Source of the DNA: a virus
Taxonomy: Duplodnaviria; Heunggongvirae; Uroviricota; Caudoviricetes
Length of the DNA: 16,073 nucleotides
Virus record (IMG/VR): IMGVR_UViG_2923307698_000005
Direction: 5' to 3' (one strand)
This document shows positions 2,493-16,073 of this stretch, one piece after another (within the stretch, counting starts at the first letter, position 1; each line of letters opens with the position of its first letter). Below the pieces are notes generated by a model that was not told where the DNA came from, searched no databases, and was given only the letters and a program-made list of their open reading frames with translations. The position numbers and the translations under genes were made by a program.

Positions 2493-4154
2493 TTACACCC
2501 CGCTAAATTCTTCCAGTTTCTGGCGGTGGCTGTCGCTTATATCAAAAGCAAAATCCTCATGCTCTGCCTGGAATGTACCAAACGCCATCAGCGCCGCCAC
2601 GCTCGGGTCTATCTTGTTCGGTGATTTTTTCTTGTTCGGCTTGATATTGGCGTTCGCGTCACTCTGCATCACGACGTTACTCATCGACCAGGACAACACC
2701 GGATCGCCACGATGCACAATCACCCTGCGGTTAACAAAAACTTCGAACGATTTCGCCGCCGGACTGAATCTGAGGTAGGTTTGCGGGAACGGCTCCACCT
2801 CAAAACCTGCCCCCTGTAATTGCGTTCTGAGATGCGTGGCGTTCCACGTATCAAAGCCCACCAGCCTGATATTAAATTTCTCCGCGTCCTGCATGATGTC
2901 ATCTCTGATCCGGTCGTAATCAATGCAGTCGCCAGGCGTTGTGCGTATCCAGCCTGCTTTAGCCCACTGACGATAGATGGCGCGGTTTTTATTGGCGGGG
3001 TTCTGTAGCTGAAATTCCGGCAGATAGTGACGGGAAACCAGCATAATGGTTTTACCGACCGGAAAGGCATAGCACACGCTGGAAATATCGCTGGTTGATG
3101 ATAAGTCCAGCCCCGCGTAACACTCCTGGCCGTGTAAATCTTCCTCCGTGAACGTTCCGGCACACTCAGCCCATGCGCCGTTACCCATCCACGGGGTAGC
3201 CCCCTGGCACCAGATATTAAATCGCTTTGTCATCATCTCCACCCACTGCGACGGAATACCCCGCGCTTTCTGGATGGTTGAGGCCAGTTTTTCACGATCG
3301 ACGGAAACATCAATATTAGGGTTCGCCTTTATCCACATCGCCGGATCATCAACCTCGTTTTCGTCGTCCAGTTCGTAAATCAGTACAAAAATTGAATCGT
3401 TAACCTCTTCGCCGTCCAGGATCTGGCAGCAATAATCATAGTGCTGCTTACAGGCTGAAACGACGTTGCTGCCTGATGTGGTAATGGCAAATAACAGCCC
3501 TTCGGGACGTGCGCCCATCCCCAGCTCAAGCGCGGAATAAACGCCGTTATCGGGGTGCAAGTGGTATTCGTCCACGATGGAAAGGCTGGGGTTTGTTCCC
3601 TCGATGGTTGCCGCTTTTGCTGCCAGCGGCTTTAACAGGCTGTTGCTTTTCGGGTGTATCACCTTATGCGCCTGAATATTCACCCGCCTGCGTAACGGTC
3701 GGGATAAAAGGCACATCTGACGCGCATCATCAAAGACGATCCGCGCCTGGTCACGGCTCACCGCTGCGGTGTAGATATCCTGCTGACCGTTCTCCATAAT
3801 CAGAAACCAGTTAGCCAGAATCGCGGCGGTCGTTGATTTCGCATTTTTGCGCGGCACTTCGATAAAGGCGCTCGTATATTTGCGCCGTCCGGTGGCCTTA
3901 ACCTTAAAGCCGAGGATGCACGCAAAGGCGAACTGCTGCCACGGCTCCAGCTCAATGGGTCTGCCACGCATCGGCCCTTTTACGTGCGGGCACACCCTGG
4001 AAAAGGCAATAAACCGATCCACAACCTCACGATCGAACGTGTAAAGGGGGCTTTTAAGGTCCGAAAAGTACCGTTTAACGGCCTGTTTCAGCCGTTTACA
4101 GGCCGGAATTTTGCCCGTTTTTACGTCTTCTGCGTACTTATTCCAGGCGGTCAA
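2493..4154 (-). CDS. Terminase large subunit (553 aa)
   Basis: Translation has an ATPase P-loop-like motif (VPRKNAKST), a Walker B-like SIVDEYH, and a C-terminal nuclease-like region, as in HK97-type TerL. The only in-frame start that keeps the conserved N-terminus is TTG at 4154 with AGGA six nt upstream; it overlaps the terS 3' end by 17 nt. Confidence 0.9.
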   Translation of the reverse strand: MTAWNKYAEDVKTGKIPACKRLKQAVKRYFSDLKSPLYTFDREVVDRFIAFSRVCPHVKGPMRGRPIELEPWQQFAFACILGFKVKATGRRKYTSAFIEVPRKNAKSTTAAILANWFLIMENGQQDIYTAAVSRDQARIVFDDARQMCLLSRPLRRRVNIQAHKVIHPKSNSLLKPLAAKAATIEGTNPSLSIVDEYHLHPDNGVYSALELGMGARPEGLLFAITTSGSNVVSACKQHYDYCCQILDGEEVNDSIFVLIYELDDENEVDDPAMWIKANPNIDVSVDREKLASTIQKARGIPSQWVEMMTKRFNIWCQGATPWMGNGAWAECAGTFTEEDLHGQECYAGLDLSSTSDISSVCYAFPVGKTIMLVSRHYLPEFQLQNPANKNRAIYRQWAKAGWIRTTPGDCIDYDRIRDDIMQDAEKFNIRLVGFDTWNATHLRTQLQGAGFEVEPFPQTYLRFSPAAKSFEVFVNRRVIVHRGDPVLSWSMSNVVMQSDANANIKPNKKKSPNKIDPSVAALMAFGTFQAEHEDFAFDISDSHRQKLEEFSGV

Positions 4155-4494
4155 GCTCGTCCTCTTCTTCTGTTTCCGGTGGATTTTTACGGCGGCTTAT
4201 CGGGTCAAAACCGAGCAAGGAGGCCATTTTTATCATCACTCTTTCCGCGTCGGATTTCGCGCTTAATGCGGGGTTTCTGCTCTCTCCGCCCTGACTGTTA
4301 ACAATGCTGAACCCGCGCGCCGCAAGGTCTGCGACGGCTTTCCGGTATATCGAGTAATTGACGCAATACAGTTCCAGATTGCTCCAGTCGGCGGGAGTCA
4401 GGTCACCCCGTTCCGCAAGCTGCCGCGATTTTTCCCGCCACTGCTTCACGGCGATATCATCCAGGTAGGCGGGGGCTTTCGGTGGTCTTGCCAT
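4138..4494 (-). CDS. Terminase small subunit, P27-like (118 aa)
   Basis: ATG at 4494. Sits directly upstream of and overlapping terL. Translation resembles the P27-family small terminase (DLTPADWSNLELYCVNYSIY) with an acidic C-terminal tail. Confidence 0.8.
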   Translation of the reverse strand: MARPPKAPAYLDDIAVKQWREKSRQLAERGDLTPADWSNLELYCVNYSIYRKAVADLAARGFSIVNSQGGESRNPALSAKSDAERVMIKMASLLGFDPISRRKNPPETEEEDELDRLE

Positions 4495-4539
4495 GCTTAT
4501 TTTTTCGCCAGATTATTTTTCAAAAAATTCCCGTGCATA

Positions 4540-4610
4540 AAAATTTGAGGAGGCGGTCGGTGCCCGGCGGGGTCGGGTTTGTCCTGAAAACGCCCCCCAC
4601 CCCGTCATAC
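4540..4610. other. Candidate cos (cohesive-end) packaging site: GC-rich tract between the HNH gene and terS
   Basis: GGAGGCGGTCGGTGCCCGGCGGGGTCGGGTTTGTCC...CGCCCCCCACCCCGTC, 50-110 bp upstream of the terS start. The HNH-cos-terS arrangement is typical of HK97-like cos phages. Positional inference only. Confidence 0.3.
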
Positions 4611-4783
4611 AGCCTCATCAGCGATTGCGGAAACATTCCATAACCTCGCGGTCACGGTCGGTTAATCGCTTCGCTGTGATGCGTTCTGCGCATCCTGACG
4701 CTTTATCTTTATGCCCTGTTTCCTGTGTCTTCCATGCGTCACGCTGCCTTATAAGTCCACGGATAAGGCGGTTTTGTTCCCGC

Positions 4784-5224
4784 TCATTCATCAGCGTCAT
4801 ACATCCAGTTATTGCGGTTAGCGGCCCGTTCTTCCTCTTCACGAAATCCACCTGCGGCACGCTTACTTTTTGTTGCCGGATCAAGCCATTTCGTTTTCTG
4901 GTTATGGCACGCCTGACACAATGGTTGATGGTTCCATTCGGGCCAGAAGAGAACATCATCACCGCCATTAATCGGGATAATGTGATCCACCACCACGGCG
5001 GGCGTATATATCCCCTTCTCAAGGCATCGCACGCATAACGGGTTTTTACTCAGATACATGGCGCGGTATTTGTCCCACTGTCTGGAGTACCCACGCGCGC
5101 GGCGGTGTCCTCGTCTGGCATCCTCTGCACGCCATGCCGCCCGCCTGTGCTCCTCACACTTGCCGGACTTCACGCGCCTGTTACAGCCTGGTTCTGTGCA
5201 TCGTCTTAATGGTTGCCACGGCAT
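4784..5224 (-). CDS. HNH endonuclease, terminase-associated type (146 aa)
   Basis: Cysteine and histidine zinc-finger-like HNH motifs (CVRCLEKG, VDHIIP, NHQPLCQACHNQKT). Lies between the head-tail connector and terS. Confidence 0.85.
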   Translation of the reverse strand: MPWQPLRRCTEPGCNRRVKSGKCEEHRRAAWRAEDARRGHRRARGYSRQWDKYRAMYLSKNPLCVRCLEKGIYTPAVVVDHIIPINGGDDVLFWPEWNHQPLCQACHNQKTKWLDPATKSKRAAGGFREEEERAANRNNWMYDADE

Positions 5225-5520
5225 CAGTACACCCCCACATCACGGTAAGCCGTCCAGAGTGCACCAATCGTCATGGGTACGCGTGTTTTTGCGTTATCCG
5301 CGACAATCTGGCGATTTTCATACAGGTGAGCGATAAACATCATGCAGCCAATCTTTATGGCTGGCGTGAACTCCAGCCCGTCATCAAAGCGCCTGCCTAT
5401 GTGTATCTGGCACGCCTCAAGCGATGCGGCAATGTATCCGCTGATTAACTGGTCTTCCTCGTCGCCATCGATGCGGCAATGGAGTTTCACTTCTTCCAGG
5501 GTGATAAGTTCTTCTGTCAT
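5224..5520 (-). CDS. Head-tail connector protein, gp6-like (98 aa)
   Basis: Size, position after the head closure gene, and translation consistent with the gp6-like connector family. Its ATG overlaps the upstream stop (ATGA). Confidence 0.65.
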   Translation of the reverse strand: MTEELITLEEVKLHCRIDGDEEDQLISGYIAASLEACQIHIGRRFDDGLEFTPAIKIGCMMFIAHLYENRQIVADNAKTRVPMTIGALWTAYRDVGVY

Positions 5521-5855
5521 TTTTCCGCGCCCTCACGACAAAGAATTTCAAGGCGTGTCCTGGCGGCATCCGGCAGCGGCTGCCCGATGATATTCAGTAC
5601 ACGCCCCGCCAGCGGCCCCGTATTGACCTTTATCCGGCTGGTGGCGTTGATGTCCTTCCTGTAGCGTATCCATACCCTTACCGTTCCAGTCGCCAGTTCT
5701 GCACCCGATGAAATGGCCTCCTTGCTGCTGATCATGTTCACGCTTGCCCAGAGTGTGTGACCGTCCACCCACGTTTCGAGTATTTCGCCCGTCATGGCTC
5801 TGGTCTGTTTCAGGGTCTGAATCGTTACCCTGTCACGCAGTCGCCCTATGTTCAT
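5517..5855 (-). CDS. Head closure / head-tail joining protein (112 aa from the ATG at 5855)
   Basis: Translation MNIGRLRDRVTIQ...VRVWIRYRKDI resembles the phage head-tail joining family. The track ORF starts at 5897, but the ATG at 5855 forms an ATGA overlap with the portal stop and has GAGGGA upstream, so 5855 is preferred. Confidence 0.65.
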   Translation of the reverse strand: MNIGRLRDRVTIQTLKQTRAMTGEILETWVDGHTLWASVNMISSKEAISSGAELATGTVRVWIRYRKDINATSRIKVNTGPLAGRVLNIIGQPLPDAARTRLEILCREGAEK

Positions 5856-7063
5856 TCCGGTTTTTCTCCCTCGCTGATTTTTACTTCCTGTTTCCATGCC
5901 TGGCTGAACTCATCACCACCATCACGCGGTGACAGTCCTTCACGTTCGCGGGCTTCGTTCGGACACATAACGCCGGATTTGATGCCGCGCTCATAGGTGG
6001 CAAAGCGTTCGCCAGGTGTGGCCCGTAACAGGTCCGCGCTGTCAAACTCCACCTGATACCGGATACCAGGTACAGGCGAGGCCACCAGCAGGGCGTTTTT
6101 TATCTGCTGCTCAAAGTTCGCCAGCCACGGGCGCATCGTCATGGTGAGAAATGCGCGGCTTGCCTCGCTGAAATTGCTGTAGGTGCTGTTGCTGTATTCC
6201 TGCAAAAAAATCGGCGAGACGTTGAACATTCTGGCGATGTCTTCAATGGTGAAGCGACGGGAGGCCAGCCATTCAGCATCCTGATTACTCATGCCCAGCT
6301 GCTGATAGCTCATACCCCCTTCAAGGATGGGCGTTTTTCCGGCGTTTCTGGCCCCTTTGTAGCGTTCCAGTGCGGCTAATGCCTGTTTGCCCTTCACGCC
6401 GTCCAGCCATTCGCCTGACGTGATAACCCCTGCCGCCATCATGCCATCACGCATCACGCTCGCGCCGTGGCGTTGTTGGGCCAGCCCAAGCCCCAGCGAT
6501 TCGCGGCAGATGGTTACAGGTGAGCGCCCCATAAAACCGTCATCCGTGGAGTAACGAAGGTGGAGAACCTCCCACGGTAAATAGTTGCGGGTGTTTCCGG
6601 TGTAGGCGTCAGTGATGCAGTAGCGCCAGTTATGCTCACCTGTCTGCTCAACGTTCACCGACTGCGGCGGGTAAGGATGCAAAGCGACCGGAAAACCATC
6701 ACGCCCCCACTGAATCACCGCATAAGCATTACCGTTTAACAGGCAGTGGCGGATCATCATTCGCTTAAACTGGTAGGGGGTTTGCCATGCGTTCGGGCGC
6801 TCGTTGAGGATGTGATCGACCGGATGAGAATCAAGCCACTCGCGGGCCTCCTTCCCCTTCTCATTGCGTACCAGGTACAGGTAACACGGCATGGTAGCCA
6901 CCGCCTCAGAGATGACCGTCACGGCGTTCATGACGGCGGGCAGTGATTCCGCTGTCCCCGATGATACGTACTCACCCGCCCCCGTGTTCGATGTGCCAGC
7001 CAGCGCCATAAACTCATCAAGCGTCATGCTGCGCTGCTCTTTTTTTCTTCTGAAAGGCCACAT
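5852..7063 (-). CDS. Portal protein, HK97 family (403 aa)
   Basis: Size, position and translation consistent with HK97-type portals. ATG at 7063 with GGGGG upstream. Confidence 0.85.
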   Translation of the reverse strand: MWPFRRKKEQRSMTLDEFMALAGTSNTGAGEYVSSGTAESLPAVMNAVTVISEAVATMPCYLYLVRNEKGKEAREWLDSHPVDHILNERPNAWQTPYQFKRMMIRHCLLNGNAYAVIQWGRDGFPVALHPYPPQSVNVEQTGEHNWRYCITDAYTGNTRNYLPWEVLHLRYSTDDGFMGRSPVTICRESLGLGLAQQRHGASVMRDGMMAAGVITSGEWLDGVKGKQALAALERYKGARNAGKTPILEGGMSYQQLGMSNQDAEWLASRRFTIEDIARMFNVSPIFLQEYSNSTYSNFSEASRAFLTMTMRPWLANFEQQIKNALLVASPVPGIRYQVEFDSADLLRATPGERFATYERGIKSGVMCPNEAREREGLSPRDGGDEFSQAWKQEVKISEGEKPE

Positions 7064-7064
7064 A

Positions 7065-7637
7065 TCACACCCCCGCTAAATCCGCCCACCAGCGGCGATT
7101 ATCCGCACGCGGCATTTTTTCGGGGTGCTGCTCATACAGGGAACGGCGGGCCAGCTCCACGTCGGAATCAGGGTAAGCCGGTACGGATGTAACGGTAATT
7201 TCGTACAGTTCCGCCACCAGCACGGTGCGCACGCATGGATCTGTTGTGGTATCCCATACATCCTTACGGGAACGAAAGCCAAAGCTCATGCCGGATATAT
7301 CACCTCGTTTAACCAGTTCGATAACGTCGCGCCCTGTACTGGTATCCGGTGGGGTCAGTTCAAAGCGTAACCCTGTTTCGTCCTCTTCCAGTTTCAGCGT
7401 GCCGGAACGGGTGCGCCCCAGTAACATGCTGTGGTCATGCTCATACAGGCCGCGAACGTCATTACCCGCCGCAAGCCATTCAGTAAACGCCCCCCGCTGG
7501 AATTTTTCGTAAAACTCACCCCATAACAGTTCTGAAAGCTTATCCCAGCGAACAATGTAGCCCGTCAGCGTACCGGCTCCGCTGGTGGTGATTTCCGATG
7601 ACCGGATTTCCATACTCTTCATAATTTTTTCACCCAT
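7065..7637 (-). CDS. Prohead maturation protease, HK97 family (190 aa)
   Basis: Lies between the capsid and portal genes; translation consistent with HK97 prohead protease. Start is ambiguous between ATGs at 7637, 7622 and 7613. Confidence 0.8.
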   Translation of the reverse strand: MGEKIMKSMEIRSSEITTSGAGTLTGYIVRWDKLSELLWGEFYEKFQRGAFTEWLAAGNDVRGLYEHDHSMLLGRTRSGTLKLEEDETGLRFELTPPDTSTGRDVIELVKRGDISGMSFGFRSRKDVWDTTTDPCVRTVLVAELYEITVTSVPAYPDSDVELARRSLYEQHPEKMPRADNRRWWADLAGV

Positions 7638-7676: not shown

Positions 7677-8834
7677 TTAATCGTCGTCCTGTGGCAGTTC
7701 CAGAATCTTGATCGCGTTCGAATCCACCACGCCACCGCCTAAATATTTCTGCGCGAAAATTTTGATGAAGCCCGGCTCTGTGAGGTTGTCCGGTCTGGTG
7801 CGAACACCTGTTTCGTGATCAACAATGTAGTAACCGCGTTTGAAGTCACCCAGGGCAATAACGTTATCCGGCATAAACTCCAGATATTCGACCGGAAGGC
7901 CCAGCAACGTATCAGGATCACCCGCCTGTAAACGGTCACGCCAGATGTAATCACCGTTCGCGTTCTTCACCTTCTGGAGTTTTGCCGCCGTCGTGGAGTT
8001 AACCACCCAGACCGCGTTTTTGCGGTATTTTTTACGTAATGCAAATTTCAGGTCGATCAGCGGGTCCGCAGATGTCCACGCCAGAGATTCGGAAGGTTTA
8101 ATTACCTGCAACGTACCAAAATCACGCTCTTTGTCGTTCTTCTCTGCACGGGGTACGGATAGAAAGCCTTTTGCTTTTTTGTCACCGTCGCCCACAACCA
8201 GATCGCTTTCTTCGGTTTCCGTGAAGGTGTCGCCAATCTCGCCCGTCAGCCATGAAAGGATGTCCACATCGGAAAAATCCACGATTTCCTGCGTGGTGCG
8301 CGGGTACGCATAGACCGGATACAGCTTAATGCTCACCTCGTTAATCTGCGGGGTGCTGGTCTGTTCGCGTGCCTTACCCTCTTCACCGTGGTTAACGGTC
8401 GCACCGCCAGCGGAAACAAGCTGCTTAAACTCGTTGCTGCTGATTTTCTTCACGGTACAGATGCGGCGCATGGTGGATTCATCCGTCAGCATTCGCATGA
8501 TTTCGGTGTTCAGTTCGGGGATAACGGTATAACCACCATCAGCGGGAACGCCTGTACTTAATGCGCGGGTTTCACCTGTCAGAATGTAGTGACGTAGTTC
8601 GGCGGGGTCAGTGGTCTGGCTGTTTTTGCCTGGTTTACTGCGCTCTTCGTCAGCAACGGCCTCAAGGCGGGAGATGTCTTTATCGAGGGATTCAGCTTTA
8701 GCGCGTAATTCGTCAAATTTTGCGCCCTCAGCATCGTTAAGGCTGCGGTTTTCTTTTTCCGCGTTCTCCAGCATGTCGCGCATCTGATTTTTAATGGCGG
8801 TTTTCTGCTGGCGTAATTCGATTATTCTCGGCAT
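7677..8834 (-). CDS. Major capsid protein, HK97 fold, with N-terminal delta (scaffold) domain (385 aa from the ATG at 8834)
   Basis: N-terminal coiled-coil-like region (IIELRQQKTAIKNQMRDMLENAEKENRSLNDAEGAKFDELRAKAESLDKDISRLEAV) followed by a capsid body. The track ORF extends to a GTG at 8882 with no ribosome-binding site; the ATG at 8834 has AGGA upstream. Confidence 0.85.
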   Translation of the reverse strand: MPRIIELRQQKTAIKNQMRDMLENAEKENRSLNDAEGAKFDELRAKAESLDKDISRLEAVADEERSKPGKNSQTTDPAELRHYILTGETRALSTGVPADGGYTVIPELNTEIMRMLTDESTMRRICTVKKISSNEFKQLVSAGGATVNHGEEGKAREQTSTPQINEVSIKLYPVYAYPRTTQEIVDFSDVDILSWLTGEIGDTFTETEESDLVVGDGDKKAKGFLSVPRAEKNDKERDFGTLQVIKPSESLAWTSADPLIDLKFALRKKYRKNAVWVVNSTTAAKLQKVKNANGDYIWRDRLQAGDPDTLLGLPVEYLEFMPDNVIALGDFKRGYYIVDHETGVRTRPDNLTEPGFIKIFAQKYLGGGVVDSNAIKILELPQDDD

Positions 8835-9044
8835 AAAAAAAGTCCTGAAGTTAAGTAAGGAACTCCAGGACGCGGCAAACACTCAACCGTTTTTCATAAG
8901 GAAATCAGCAATCGCACCGATCGTTTTCCCGCCTGGTAATGAATATTGGCGGGCACATTAACAGGCGGGAAAGTGGCCCCAGCGTCCTGGCACCACGGGC
9001 GAGAATAATCATGATTCAGTTCGGGTAAAATATGCCGATCCGGT

Positions 9045-9121: not shown

Positions 9122-9394
9122 TTATCTGTCCTGGTAATTTCGCCATATTTCATCACCAGCACCATCCATACCCATTTCGGCATAAGTGCGATCGACCGCC
9201 TTTTTCAGGTCTCCGTAATTATCCGGCGGCTCCGGTGGCCTCTGTGCCTTCCTGGAACATTCCAGCCGTCGCATCGTGATGTGATGCCGTTCCTTGTCTG
9301 TCTCCACCAGTTGCATGACTTCACCCCATCGCGCCGACGCTCTCCGGTAAAAGCCTTTCGCCTCCAGTTCTTCCGCTATGCGGTCATGTACCAT
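9122..9394 (-). CDS. PerC-family transcriptional regulator-like protein (90 aa from the ATG at 9394)
   Basis: Translation MVHDRIAEELEAKGFYRRASARWGEVM...TDKER...RR..CSR matches my recollection of the PerC/Pch signature. The track start at 9403 is a GTG; the ATG at 9394 is preferred. Confidence 0.55.
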   Translation of the reverse strand: MVHDRIAEELEAKGFYRRASARWGEVMQLVETDKERHHITMRRLECSRKAQRPPEPPDNYGDLKKAVDRTYAEMGMDGAGDEIWRNYQDR

Positions 9395-9406
9395 CGTCCC
9401 CACCCC

Positions 9407-14843: not shown

Positions 14844-16073
14844 TTATTTTCTTCTGGCTACTGGTAGTGCGGTTACGTTTTCATGTGTTCCCGCCAGTAT
14901 CCCTAACCGCTCCATCCACATATCCAGCGCATTGCGTTTAGCATCCAGATAACGGGAATGATTATAAACTCGCTGCATTCCTGGCATCTGGTGGCCTGTA
15001 AGCTGCTCCACGACGTGAGGATCCACGCCTAAATCGTTCAGCATCGTTGTAAAGGTGCGCCGGATGTCATGTAGTGACCAGTGAGGGTGATTTAGCCTCC
15101 TGTGCGCTAATCTGCCGTACTGCGACACGCTTGTTTCCTGTTTCACTTCCCCCAGCAATAAGCCCGTGTGCCTGTTCTGCTCCACCAGCTGCGTGACGAA
15201 CGGCAGTATTGCTTCCGGTATGGGCCGGAATATGGCTACCTTCGTTTTGCTGTGCTCCTTCGGAACAGTCCAGAGCATTTCGGTAAAATCCCACTCGCCG
15301 ATCTCCGATAACCTAAGTTCGACCGTCCGGCATCCGAACACAATCAGGAGGCGGATTAGCGCGATGTAGTAGGGGGAGAATATTTTTTTGTCCAGTGCCT
15401 GCAATAATTCGCCAAGTTCTTTGTTGCTTAAGACACGCTCGCTTATATCCGGTTTTTTCCCAACGTCCGCCACACTCATATCATCAAGAACGTTGCTGAT
15501 TGCATAGCGCCGCTTCCGGCAGAACTTAAGCGCCTGCTTGCATGTCTGTAGCAGGAACCCGGCGGAAACAGGGGCTTGCTTTGCCACCCGATCAAAACAG
15601 GCCAGCCAGTGCCGTAGCTCGCATTTATCCAGCGGCATAGGGCCAATGTGCTGTATTACGTGATTATTTAGCCGCTTTTTCAGTGGGTCATAATCCACAC
15701 GGTTTTCCTTTGCGTACGACTCAAGCCAGTAGGTGAGCGCATCACCAACCGTTACCGGCTTTAACGCTTCCTGTACGGTGTAATTAAGCTCATGACGTGG
15801 ATTTTTCCCCTCTGCCAGCCATGCGCGACACTGGGCGGCTTTTTCCCTGGCTGATTTCAGGCTCAGATCAGGATAATTTCCCAGCTTAATGCGTTCCGGT
15901 GGTGCCCCCCTTCCCGTTCCGGCCCTGTAAGTGAAATACCAGGTTAAAAGGCCACTGGTTGAATGCCTGACGCTCAGGTTTCCACCGTCATTAAGAAAGG
16001 CTGTTTTTTGGGCGGGTGTGCCGTTGATTTTCCTCAGCTGTGTATCGCTCAGTTTGTTAAGTGCTCTGCTCAT
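14844..16073 (-). CDS. Tyrosine site-specific integrase, P4-like (409 aa)
   Basis: Catalytic-domain motifs near the C-terminus (HDIRRTF, GHQMPGMQRVYNHSRY) and an N-terminal DNA-binding region. The ATG is the reverse complement of the last three bases of the window. Confidence 0.93.
   Translation of the reverse strand: MSRALNKLSDTQLRKINGTPAQKTAFLNDGGNLSVRHSTSGLLTWYFTYRAGTGRGAPPERIKLGNYPDLSLKSAREKAAQCRAWLAEGKNPRHELNYTVQEALKPVTVGDALTYWLESYAKENRVDYDPLKKRLNNHVIQHIGPMPLDKCELRHWLACFDRVAKQAPVSAGFLLQTCKQALKFCRKRRYAISNVLDDMSVADVGKKPDISERVLSNKELGELLQALDKKIFSPYYIALIRLLIVFGCRTVELRLSEIGEWDFTEMLWTVPKEHSKTKVAIFRPIPEAILPFVTQLVEQNRHTGLLLGEVKQETSVSQYGRLAHRRLNHPHWSLHDIRRTFTTMLNDLGVDPHVVEQLTGHQMPGMQRVYNHSRYLDAKRNALDMWMERLGILAGTHENVTALPVARRK

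Follow-up and report, generated by a model that had tools for sequence, protein, structure and literature searches.

Conserved DNA between the HNH and small-terminase genes of an EcCIEDL933-type satellite is the probable location of its cos site

The cos site of the EcCIEDL933-like capsid-forming PICI (cf-PICI) described here very probably lies in the 123 nt of non-coding DNA at positions 4495–4617, directly upstream of the small-terminase gene terS, and we place the cut within about 4533–4556 with slightly better than even confidence (positions are those of the window, the whole 16,073-nt stretch of DNA analysed). An initial annotation had proposed a cos site in the 289-nt gap between the HNH gene and terS (4495–4783), placed as in HK97. 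The type of element, the conservation of the non-coding DNA and a break in a particle-derived Klebsiella record all support that placement, and the boundaries of the two flanking genes (4784–5224 and 4138–4494) are confirmed.

What exceeds chance in this region is conservation, not composition. The same annotation had pointed to a GC-rich tract at 4540–4610 set in AT-rich surroundings. The tract is present, with 63% GC overall and 72% in its 4547–4607 portion compared with 51% for the whole window, but it is not exceptional, as 3.7% of the 71-nt windows equal or exceed it, spread over 30 separate places; we therefore dropped GC composition as a signal for cos. The AT-rich surroundings are confined to 4495–4539 (31% GC, within the lowest 2.5% of 45-nt windows), whereas 4611–4783 has 53% GC. 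Nor does GC-richness mark the conserved part, as the middle of the tract (4563–4592) is the least conserved portion of the region and the best-conserved core extends into the AT-rich segment that had been taken as background. Finally, the gap is intergenic only in part, with 4495–4617 being non-coding and 4618–4791/4800 coding for protein.

The window is a segment of E. coli chromosome in which the first 1461 nt encode PhoQ and the remainder is a mobile element with all of its genes on the minus strand (Table 1). Its sequence is nearly that of EcCIEDL933, and it has the organization by which EcCIEDL933-type cf-PICIs are defined. Pfam matches on the minus strand run from 8882 down to 2493 in the order capsid, protease, portal, adaptor and connector, followed by hnh–terS–terL, and an integrase, an AAA_25 protein, an SSB and a PerC-like protein make up the integrase and regulation/replication modules. 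The element covers ~14 kb of the window and continues past its end, compared with a cf-PICI size of about 10–18 kb, and tail and lysis genes are missing from the window's list of open reading frames (ORFs). Of 5426 complete E. coli genomes, 488 contain the 501 nt around the HNH–terS gap, chromosomally in every case, and in 150 of them identity is 99% or higher, O157:H7 and O55:H7 strains included. The PerC family, represented here at 9122–9403, has been connected with control of the LEE pathogenicity island of attaching-effacing E. coli.

Table 1. Genes of the element and sequence blocks of the HNH–terS region, in window coordinates.
Feature	Position	Strand	Remarks
93-aa ORF directly downstream of terL	2198–2479	−	full-length PHROG 1561 match (function unknown)
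terL, HK97-type large terminase	2493–4154	−	PF03354 + PF20441
terS, P27-family small terminase	4138–4494	−	PF05119, E 1e-23; phrog_83
Variable AT-rich leader before terS ATG	4495–4512	−	mean pairwise identity 0.53 (34 TerS-selected representatives)
Predicted TerS-binding (cosB-like) part, TGCACGG-GAA-TTTTTT-GAAAAATAA	4513–4537	−	conservation and HK97 analogy
GAAAATAA	4513–4521	−	in most copies
T6–7 tract	4522–4527	−	invariant or nearly so
Three variable bases	4528–4530	−	
YGCACGG	4531–4537	−	GCACGG invariant or nearly so
A/T junction AAATTTTTA	4538–4546	−	pairwise identity 0.97; centre of predicted cleavage zone (about 4533–4556)
C-rich block CACCGACCGCCTCCTC	4547–4562	−	ACC invariant, CCT 0.98, block mean 0.78
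Variable spacer	4563–4592	−	about 30 nt, mean pairwise identity 0.53; only GAC-AAA kept
Conserved G-run GGGGTGGGGGG	4593–4603	−	G positions 0.98–1.0 identical; candidate upstream cos element
Small conserved gene (PHROG 3173)	4618–4800	−	57 aa (ATG 4791) or 60 aa (ATG 4800)
HNH endonuclease (gp74-like packaging accessory nuclease)	4784–5224	−	PF01844; phrog_144
Head–tail connector	5224–5520	−	Pfam
Head closure	5517–5897	−	Pfam
Portal	5852–7063	−	Pfam
Prohead protease	7065–7637	−	Pfam
Major capsid	7677–8882	−	Pfam
PerC-like activator	9122–9403	−	PF06069, E 3e-43
DUF4222; AAA_25 replication protein; SSB		−	
Integrase	14844–16073	−	

The two characterized elements EcCIEDL933 and KpCIDSM30104 (Alqurainy et al. 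2022/23; He et al. 2025) are of the same type and share the module order capsid, protease, portal, connectors, HNH, terS and terL. For EcCIEDL933, induction by a helper phage and mobilisation using helper tails have been shown experimentally, and each gene of the packaging module, including those for HNH, TerS and TerL, is needed for transfer of the satellite and none for transfer of the helper (bioRxiv 10.1101/2022.09.08.507074). KpCIDSM30104 DNA forms concatemers via cohesive cos ends (He et al.; 10.1101/2025.02.11.637232). In the published accounts of these two elements that we examined, we found neither a nucleotide-level description of cos nor a role for the small gene. The element, its packaging genes and its packaging at cos are already on record, and specialists would look for cos between hnh and terS. 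New here are the nucleotide-level architecture of the site, its extreme conservation across bacterial orders, a narrower cut zone drawn from a public assembly and the presence of a conserved gene in the ‘gap’.

An alignment of 48 representatives with <90% mutual identity defines the blocks listed in Table 1, and the same succession of G-run, spacer, C-block, AAATTTTTAYGCACGG and T-tract is found upstream of terS in 80 TerS-selected loci from many genera. A subset of 34 representatives was found via the TerS protein, making its selection independent of the DNA motif. Among these 34, the mean pairwise identity of the core is 0.87, compared with 0.80, 0.84 and 0.48 for the first, second and third codon positions of terS in the same loci, and this non-coding DNA is therefore more constrained than the adjacent coding sequence. 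Conservation peaks in the G-run (0.98–1.0), the T-tract (0.99) and AATTTTTA (0.97), and AAATTTTTAYGCACGG-N3-T6 forms a nearly invariant core at 4522–4546. The leader that follows carries an AGGAAA Shine–Dalgarno-like element in most relatives. Relatives occur in Enterobacterales, Pasteurellales (Pasteurella Pmp8, Avibacterium), Orbales (Gilliamella, Frischella) and Aeromonas. The motif AAATTTTTAYGCACGGNANTTTTTT is present once in the window, with 0 occurrences expected from 200 shuffles, and each of 120 IMG/VR stretches, most of them from contigs of satellite size, contains it exactly once; among INPHARED phages, the region is absent apart from three satellite-derived records. We also searched IMG/VR, with spanning and one-sided patterns, for contigs that end at cos, a search in which locus boundaries differ from contig ends; the contigs found by look-up to encode TerS were only long chromosomal ones.

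The 8–10 nt that follow the T-tract (4513–4521 in the window) are of three types, GAAAATAA, ..GCAG and AGAAAGTA, which follow TerS clades. TerS identity is 0.83 within and 0.72 between these types, a pattern that could reflect co-evolution of TerS and its site and is confounded by phylogeny. In Xenorhabdus hominickii, the G-run has grown to five tandem GGGGTA units, a potential G-quadruplex motif, with the other parts of the site unchanged.

A particle-derived record narrows the position of the cut. LR881103.1 (vB_KppS-Ant; 16,548 nt, linear) was assembled from lysate DNA of K. pneumoniae DSM 30104 by Nextera XT sequencing and SPAdes (PMC8006926). It begins 22 nt before terS and finishes 10 nt past the G-run. 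Across 1400 + 1800 nt, its ends are 100% identical to the prophage in ATCC 13883, which is the same K. pneumoniae type strain. The prophage contains 69 nt that are absent from the record, GAACACGAGGGCGCCAGGCACCACCCGCCCCCTCAAA|TTTTTTCGCACGGTGATTTTTTTGAAAATAAA, comprising 37 + 32 nt around AAA|TTT. Packaging at cos loses no DNA, and these 69 nt must therefore be in particles yet missing from the assembly. Because transposase libraries drop the last tens of bases of linear DNA, the virion ends should fall within the 69-nt segment, which corresponds to about 4512–4580 in the window. If the drop-out was roughly symmetric, the Klebsiella virion ends would map near 4538–4546, an indirect placement that depends on this loss at the assembly ends. 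The probability that a random break would fall in the intergenic region is about 0.008. In a second particle-derived record, PQ569648.1 (Klebsiella phage P12620-1), a terminal satellite unit extends from terS codon 2 to 2 nt before the small-gene stop and thus is bounded by the same intergenic region, less precisely than in LR881103.1.

vB_KppS-Ant, reported as a novel filamentous ssDNA phage, is the cf-PICI of DSM 30104/ATCC 13883 (100% over 3200 nt) and carries capsid, portal, HNH, terS and terL genes. The 106.5-kb ‘complete genome’ of PQ569648.1 is a chimeric assembly in which the last ~15.7 kb (90.6–106.5 kb) are a cf-PICI unit joined at terS codon 2 to unrelated sequence.

We propose the following model for packaging, drawn largely from HK97. 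The P27-family TerS would bind the GCACGG-N3-T6-7 element (4513–4537) just upstream of terS and position the HK97-type TerL, with the gp74-like HNH nuclease assisting. Staggered nicks could then be introduced within about 4533–4556, on or beside the AAATTTTTA junction and the C-rich block that abuts it, probably leaving a short 3′ cohesive end, as in HK97. From the cut end, packaging would take in terS and terL first, continue round the element and stop at the next cos. The G-run at 4593–4603 may serve as an upstream or termination element, with a cosQ-like role being speculative. Neither TerS nor its site is related to its counterpart in HK106 and HK97, and packaging of the satellite and of its helper would therefore be mutually exclusive.

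In HK97 and in the satellite, the gene order is HNH (gp74 in HK97), a small ORF, cos (a predicted one in the satellite), terS and terL. HK97 is cut 49 nt upstream of the ATG of its terS (gp1), and the first T of the window's junction (4543) likewise lies 49 nt upstream of terS. A G-run precedes the cut in HK97/HK106 (G9–10) and the predicted cut in the satellite, at similar distances (about 42 nt compared with about 47 nt); a C-rich block (GACCGCC...) abuts an A3/T3–5 junction in HK97 and in the satellite; and both have a T6–7 tract 17–24 nt downstream, which in the satellite is ~7 nt nearer the predicted cut than in HK97. The ends of HK97, with a 10-nt 3′ overhang, are known experimentally, whereas those of the satellite are predicted. 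As for the proteins, a gp74-like HNH gene lies beside terS and an HK97-type terL in the window, with 27% identity between the satellite TerL and the HK106/HK97-type TerL over about 500 aa (E 1e-46) and 41% identity between the satellite HNH protein and the gp74-like HNH protein of HK106 over 81 aa (E 5e-19).

Recognition appears to be different. The satellite TerS has no similarity to HK97/HK106 TerS (E 2.4), and HK97 gp1 has no Pfam match, in contrast to the PF05119 (P27) match of the satellite protein. HK97 TerS binds +15 to +29 downstream of the cut, at a G plus A-tract (PMC11331095). This site (CTAACCCGATTTTTT) is absent from the satellite region, where the resemblance is limited to a G/C plus T-tract. 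HK97 GACCGCCGCCAAA, which ends at the HK97 cut, resembles the satellite C-rich block, with an alignment that is not significant, and the best local alignment, of GACCGCCTCCTCAAATTTT with GACCGCCGC--CAAAGTTT spanning the HK97 cut, has p=0.22. We therefore rejected homology of the site to HK97/HK106 cos and retain the likeness as architectural resemblance only. The cos region of HK106, the helper of EcCIEDL933, is essentially identical to that of HK97. Given the insignificant similarity of the region to this helper site and the unrelated TerS proteins, the suggestion in the initial annotation that the satellite's cos differs from its helper's is supported. On our reading, the nuclease side of the satellite system would operate as in HK97, with DNA recognized by another subunit at another site, and the HK97 binding-site analogy may fail because the satellite TerS belongs to another family. 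A separate TerS and site would keep satellite and helper packaging apart, as the initial annotation proposed and consistent with the genetics of EcCIEDL933.

Other cos systems share parts of this logic. In lambda, cosQ–cosN–cosB has the same tripartite organization, in which a nicking site lies between an upstream element and a downstream region bound by TerS, beside the terminase genes. However, lambda has 12-nt 5′ overhangs, uses gpNu1 and IHF, lacks an HNH partner and has no sequence relationship to the satellite site; no IHF consensus is found in the HNH–terS gap. SaPIbov5-type cos SaPIs and P4 are likewise satellites packaged by cos, and the staphylococcal helpers also need an HNH protein. 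These satellites copy the helper cos and use the helper terminase, whereas the satellite in the window has its own TerS, TerL and HNH proteins and a predicted cos of its own that is distinct.

Conservation by itself would fit cos or another protein-binding site, and several other functions merit consideration. The blocks could, for example, form a transcriptional or RNA element, either an internal promoter for terS–terL or a terminator/attenuator in which the G-run pairs with the C-run ahead of a U5 tract. The G-run and C-rich block are in fact partly complementary and are followed by AAATTTTT; RNAalifold joins them by 7 pairs, and they are paired in the minimum-free-energy structures of four of five relatives. 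The consensus fold, however, reaches only −1.9 kcal/mol with essentially no covariation (a term of −0.22), single sequences fold with z of −0.9 to +1.0 relative to shuffles, and the G- and C-runs are unpaired in the window itself. The loop would exceed 30 nt, with AAA between stem and U-tract. No promoter or terminator is predicted on the coding strand, no Rfam family matches, and the spacer (4563–4592) contains no convincing hairpin (mean fold z −0.27). With a weak consensus fold and z about 0, we rejected a conserved RNA or single-stranded DNA structure or terminator; lack of a structural signal places the constraint on primary sequence, as expected for protein–DNA recognition. A transcriptional or RNA element would also leave the break in the particle assembly unexplained, and we regard it as very unlikely. 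Headful packaging from a pac site, recognized in the conserved region without being cut at a fixed position, is compatible with the occurrence of P27-family TerS proteins in diverse phages. It is highly improbable, given that an HK97-type TerL with a gp74-like HNH protein is a hallmark of HNH-dependent cos systems (Kala 2014, as cited in PMC11331095), that cf-PICI DNA has been reported with cohesive ends (10.1101/2025.02.11.637232) and that the vB_KppS-Ant assembly is linear, with unique ends flanking one site and no circular permutation.

A cut elsewhere in the gap has a stronger claim than either of these but is still unlikely in our estimate. The AAATTTTTA/GCACGG core would then be a TerS-binding site only, with cleavage occurring in the G-run, the spacer or the 3′ end of the small gene. 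The G-run is as well conserved as the core, DNA at the 3′ end of the small gene is also well conserved, and drop-out at the ends of the vB_KppS-Ant assembly could have been asymmetric. Nevertheless, the right end of that assembly contains the G-run and the next 10 nt, which puts the cut downstream of window position 4581, and the left end starts ~22 nt before terS, leaving about 4512–4580 as the range for cleavage.

The small gene within the gap, which had been listed as a possible 60-aa ORF at 4618–4800 without a convincing ribosome-binding site, does overlap the 3′ end of the HNH gene by 17 nt, as described, but turns out to be a conserved gene that probably begins at ATG 4791. Its 57-aa product matches PHROG 3173 (function unknown) over the full length (1–57 of 57, E 5e-36), and a Klebsiella homologue matches the same family with E 2e-27. 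PGAP annotates 4618–4800 as hypothetical protein WP_000174068.1, with a 61-aa version in copies that are 85% identical. Proteins of this family share an N-terminal M(N/T)E(Q/K)(E/D)..L..(G/S)L motif, and their C-terminal RDRE(L/V)(M/R)ECFRNR hardly varies. Conservation is lowest at third codon positions (0.56, compared with 0.70 and 0.73), and the median dN/dS is about 0.32 over 604 informative pairs. By these sequence signatures, 4618–4791/4800 is a real protein-coding gene. ATG 4791 overlaps the HNH stop within the string ATGAATGA, which is also present in Klebsiella, and such stop/start overlap, typical of translational coupling, would account for the weak Shine–Dalgarno sequence.

At loci retrieved with the TerS protein in IMG/VR and in a single genome for each species, together with annotated E. 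coli and phage records, HNH–terS distances are bimodal, at 115–176 nt and 248–338 nt, with three larger outliers. Of the 110 loci with a gap of 200–400 nt, 106 have an intact small ORF that accounts for the additional length, and its end always lies 119–135 nt before terS, except in a few copies that are truncated or divergent. About 17 genera carry it, among them Escherichia, Klebsiella, Enterobacter, Kosakonia, Kluyvera, Pluralibacter, Phytobacter, Pantoea, Erwinia, Rahnella, Serratia, Proteus, Providencia and Xenorhabdus. It is absent from most Xenorhabdus/Photorhabdus copies and from Pasteurella, Gilliamella, Frischella, Aeromonas and Citrobacter copies. Overall, about half of related satellites have the gene, and its lack in many relatives marks it as accessory. 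In three E. coli IMG/VR prophage contigs, a premature stop leaves 44 aa and removes the conserved RDRE..CFRNR end, which fits a dispensable or accessory role.

In an AlphaFold2 model of the small protein (pLDDT 77, pTM 0.36), a disordered basic linker joins a long N-terminal helix to a short C-terminal one, an arrangement too simple for structural comparison to be informative. This small basic helical protein is probably an accessory factor, and a role in packaging is speculative. In EcCIEDL933, loss of ‘hypothetical gene 1792’ of the packaging module severely reduces transfer without abolishing it (bioRxiv 10.1101/2022.09.08.507074). That gene may correspond to the small ORF at 4618–4800 or to the 93-aa ORF at 2198–2479, which has no Pfam match; a search of the protein cluster members for EDL933 locus tags that could be matched to ‘hypothetical gene 1792’ found none.

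More broadly, the G-run, C-block, AAATTTTTAYGCACGG and T-tract might constitute one nearly invariant packaging signal across satellites of at least four Gammaproteobacteria orders, with interchangeable terminases, and the PHROG 3173 protein might be a lineage-specific cos-binding or terminase-specificity cofactor, perhaps ‘hypothetical gene 1792’ itself. We consider this extended proposal doubtful. If it were true, any such satellite, or a plasmid carrying about 120 bp of the site, would be packaged by the terminase of any other.

cf-PICIs are recently recognized and very widespread satellites that make their own capsids, borrow tails and move across species. The system rests on the satellite terminase picking satellite DNA over helper DNA, and a map of cos, with its conserved blocks, a cut zone of ~25 nt and a TerS family unlike that of the helper, makes this choice testable. 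Such a map is also useful for engineering satellite-based DNA delivery, and it overturns nothing. Moreover, the site provides a compact DNA signature for finding satellites of this kind and immobilized relics, such as a copy in Shigella flexneri SFBU1023. In that strain, a 98-nt deletion between short CCCCGCC direct repeats (homologous to about 4475–4572) has taken out the C-rich block and the conserved core together with the first six codons of terS. Lacking the presumed cos and the terS start, this copy is probably immobilized, judging from its sequence. Records of a 108-aa TerS variant come from 55 Shigella/E. coli contigs.
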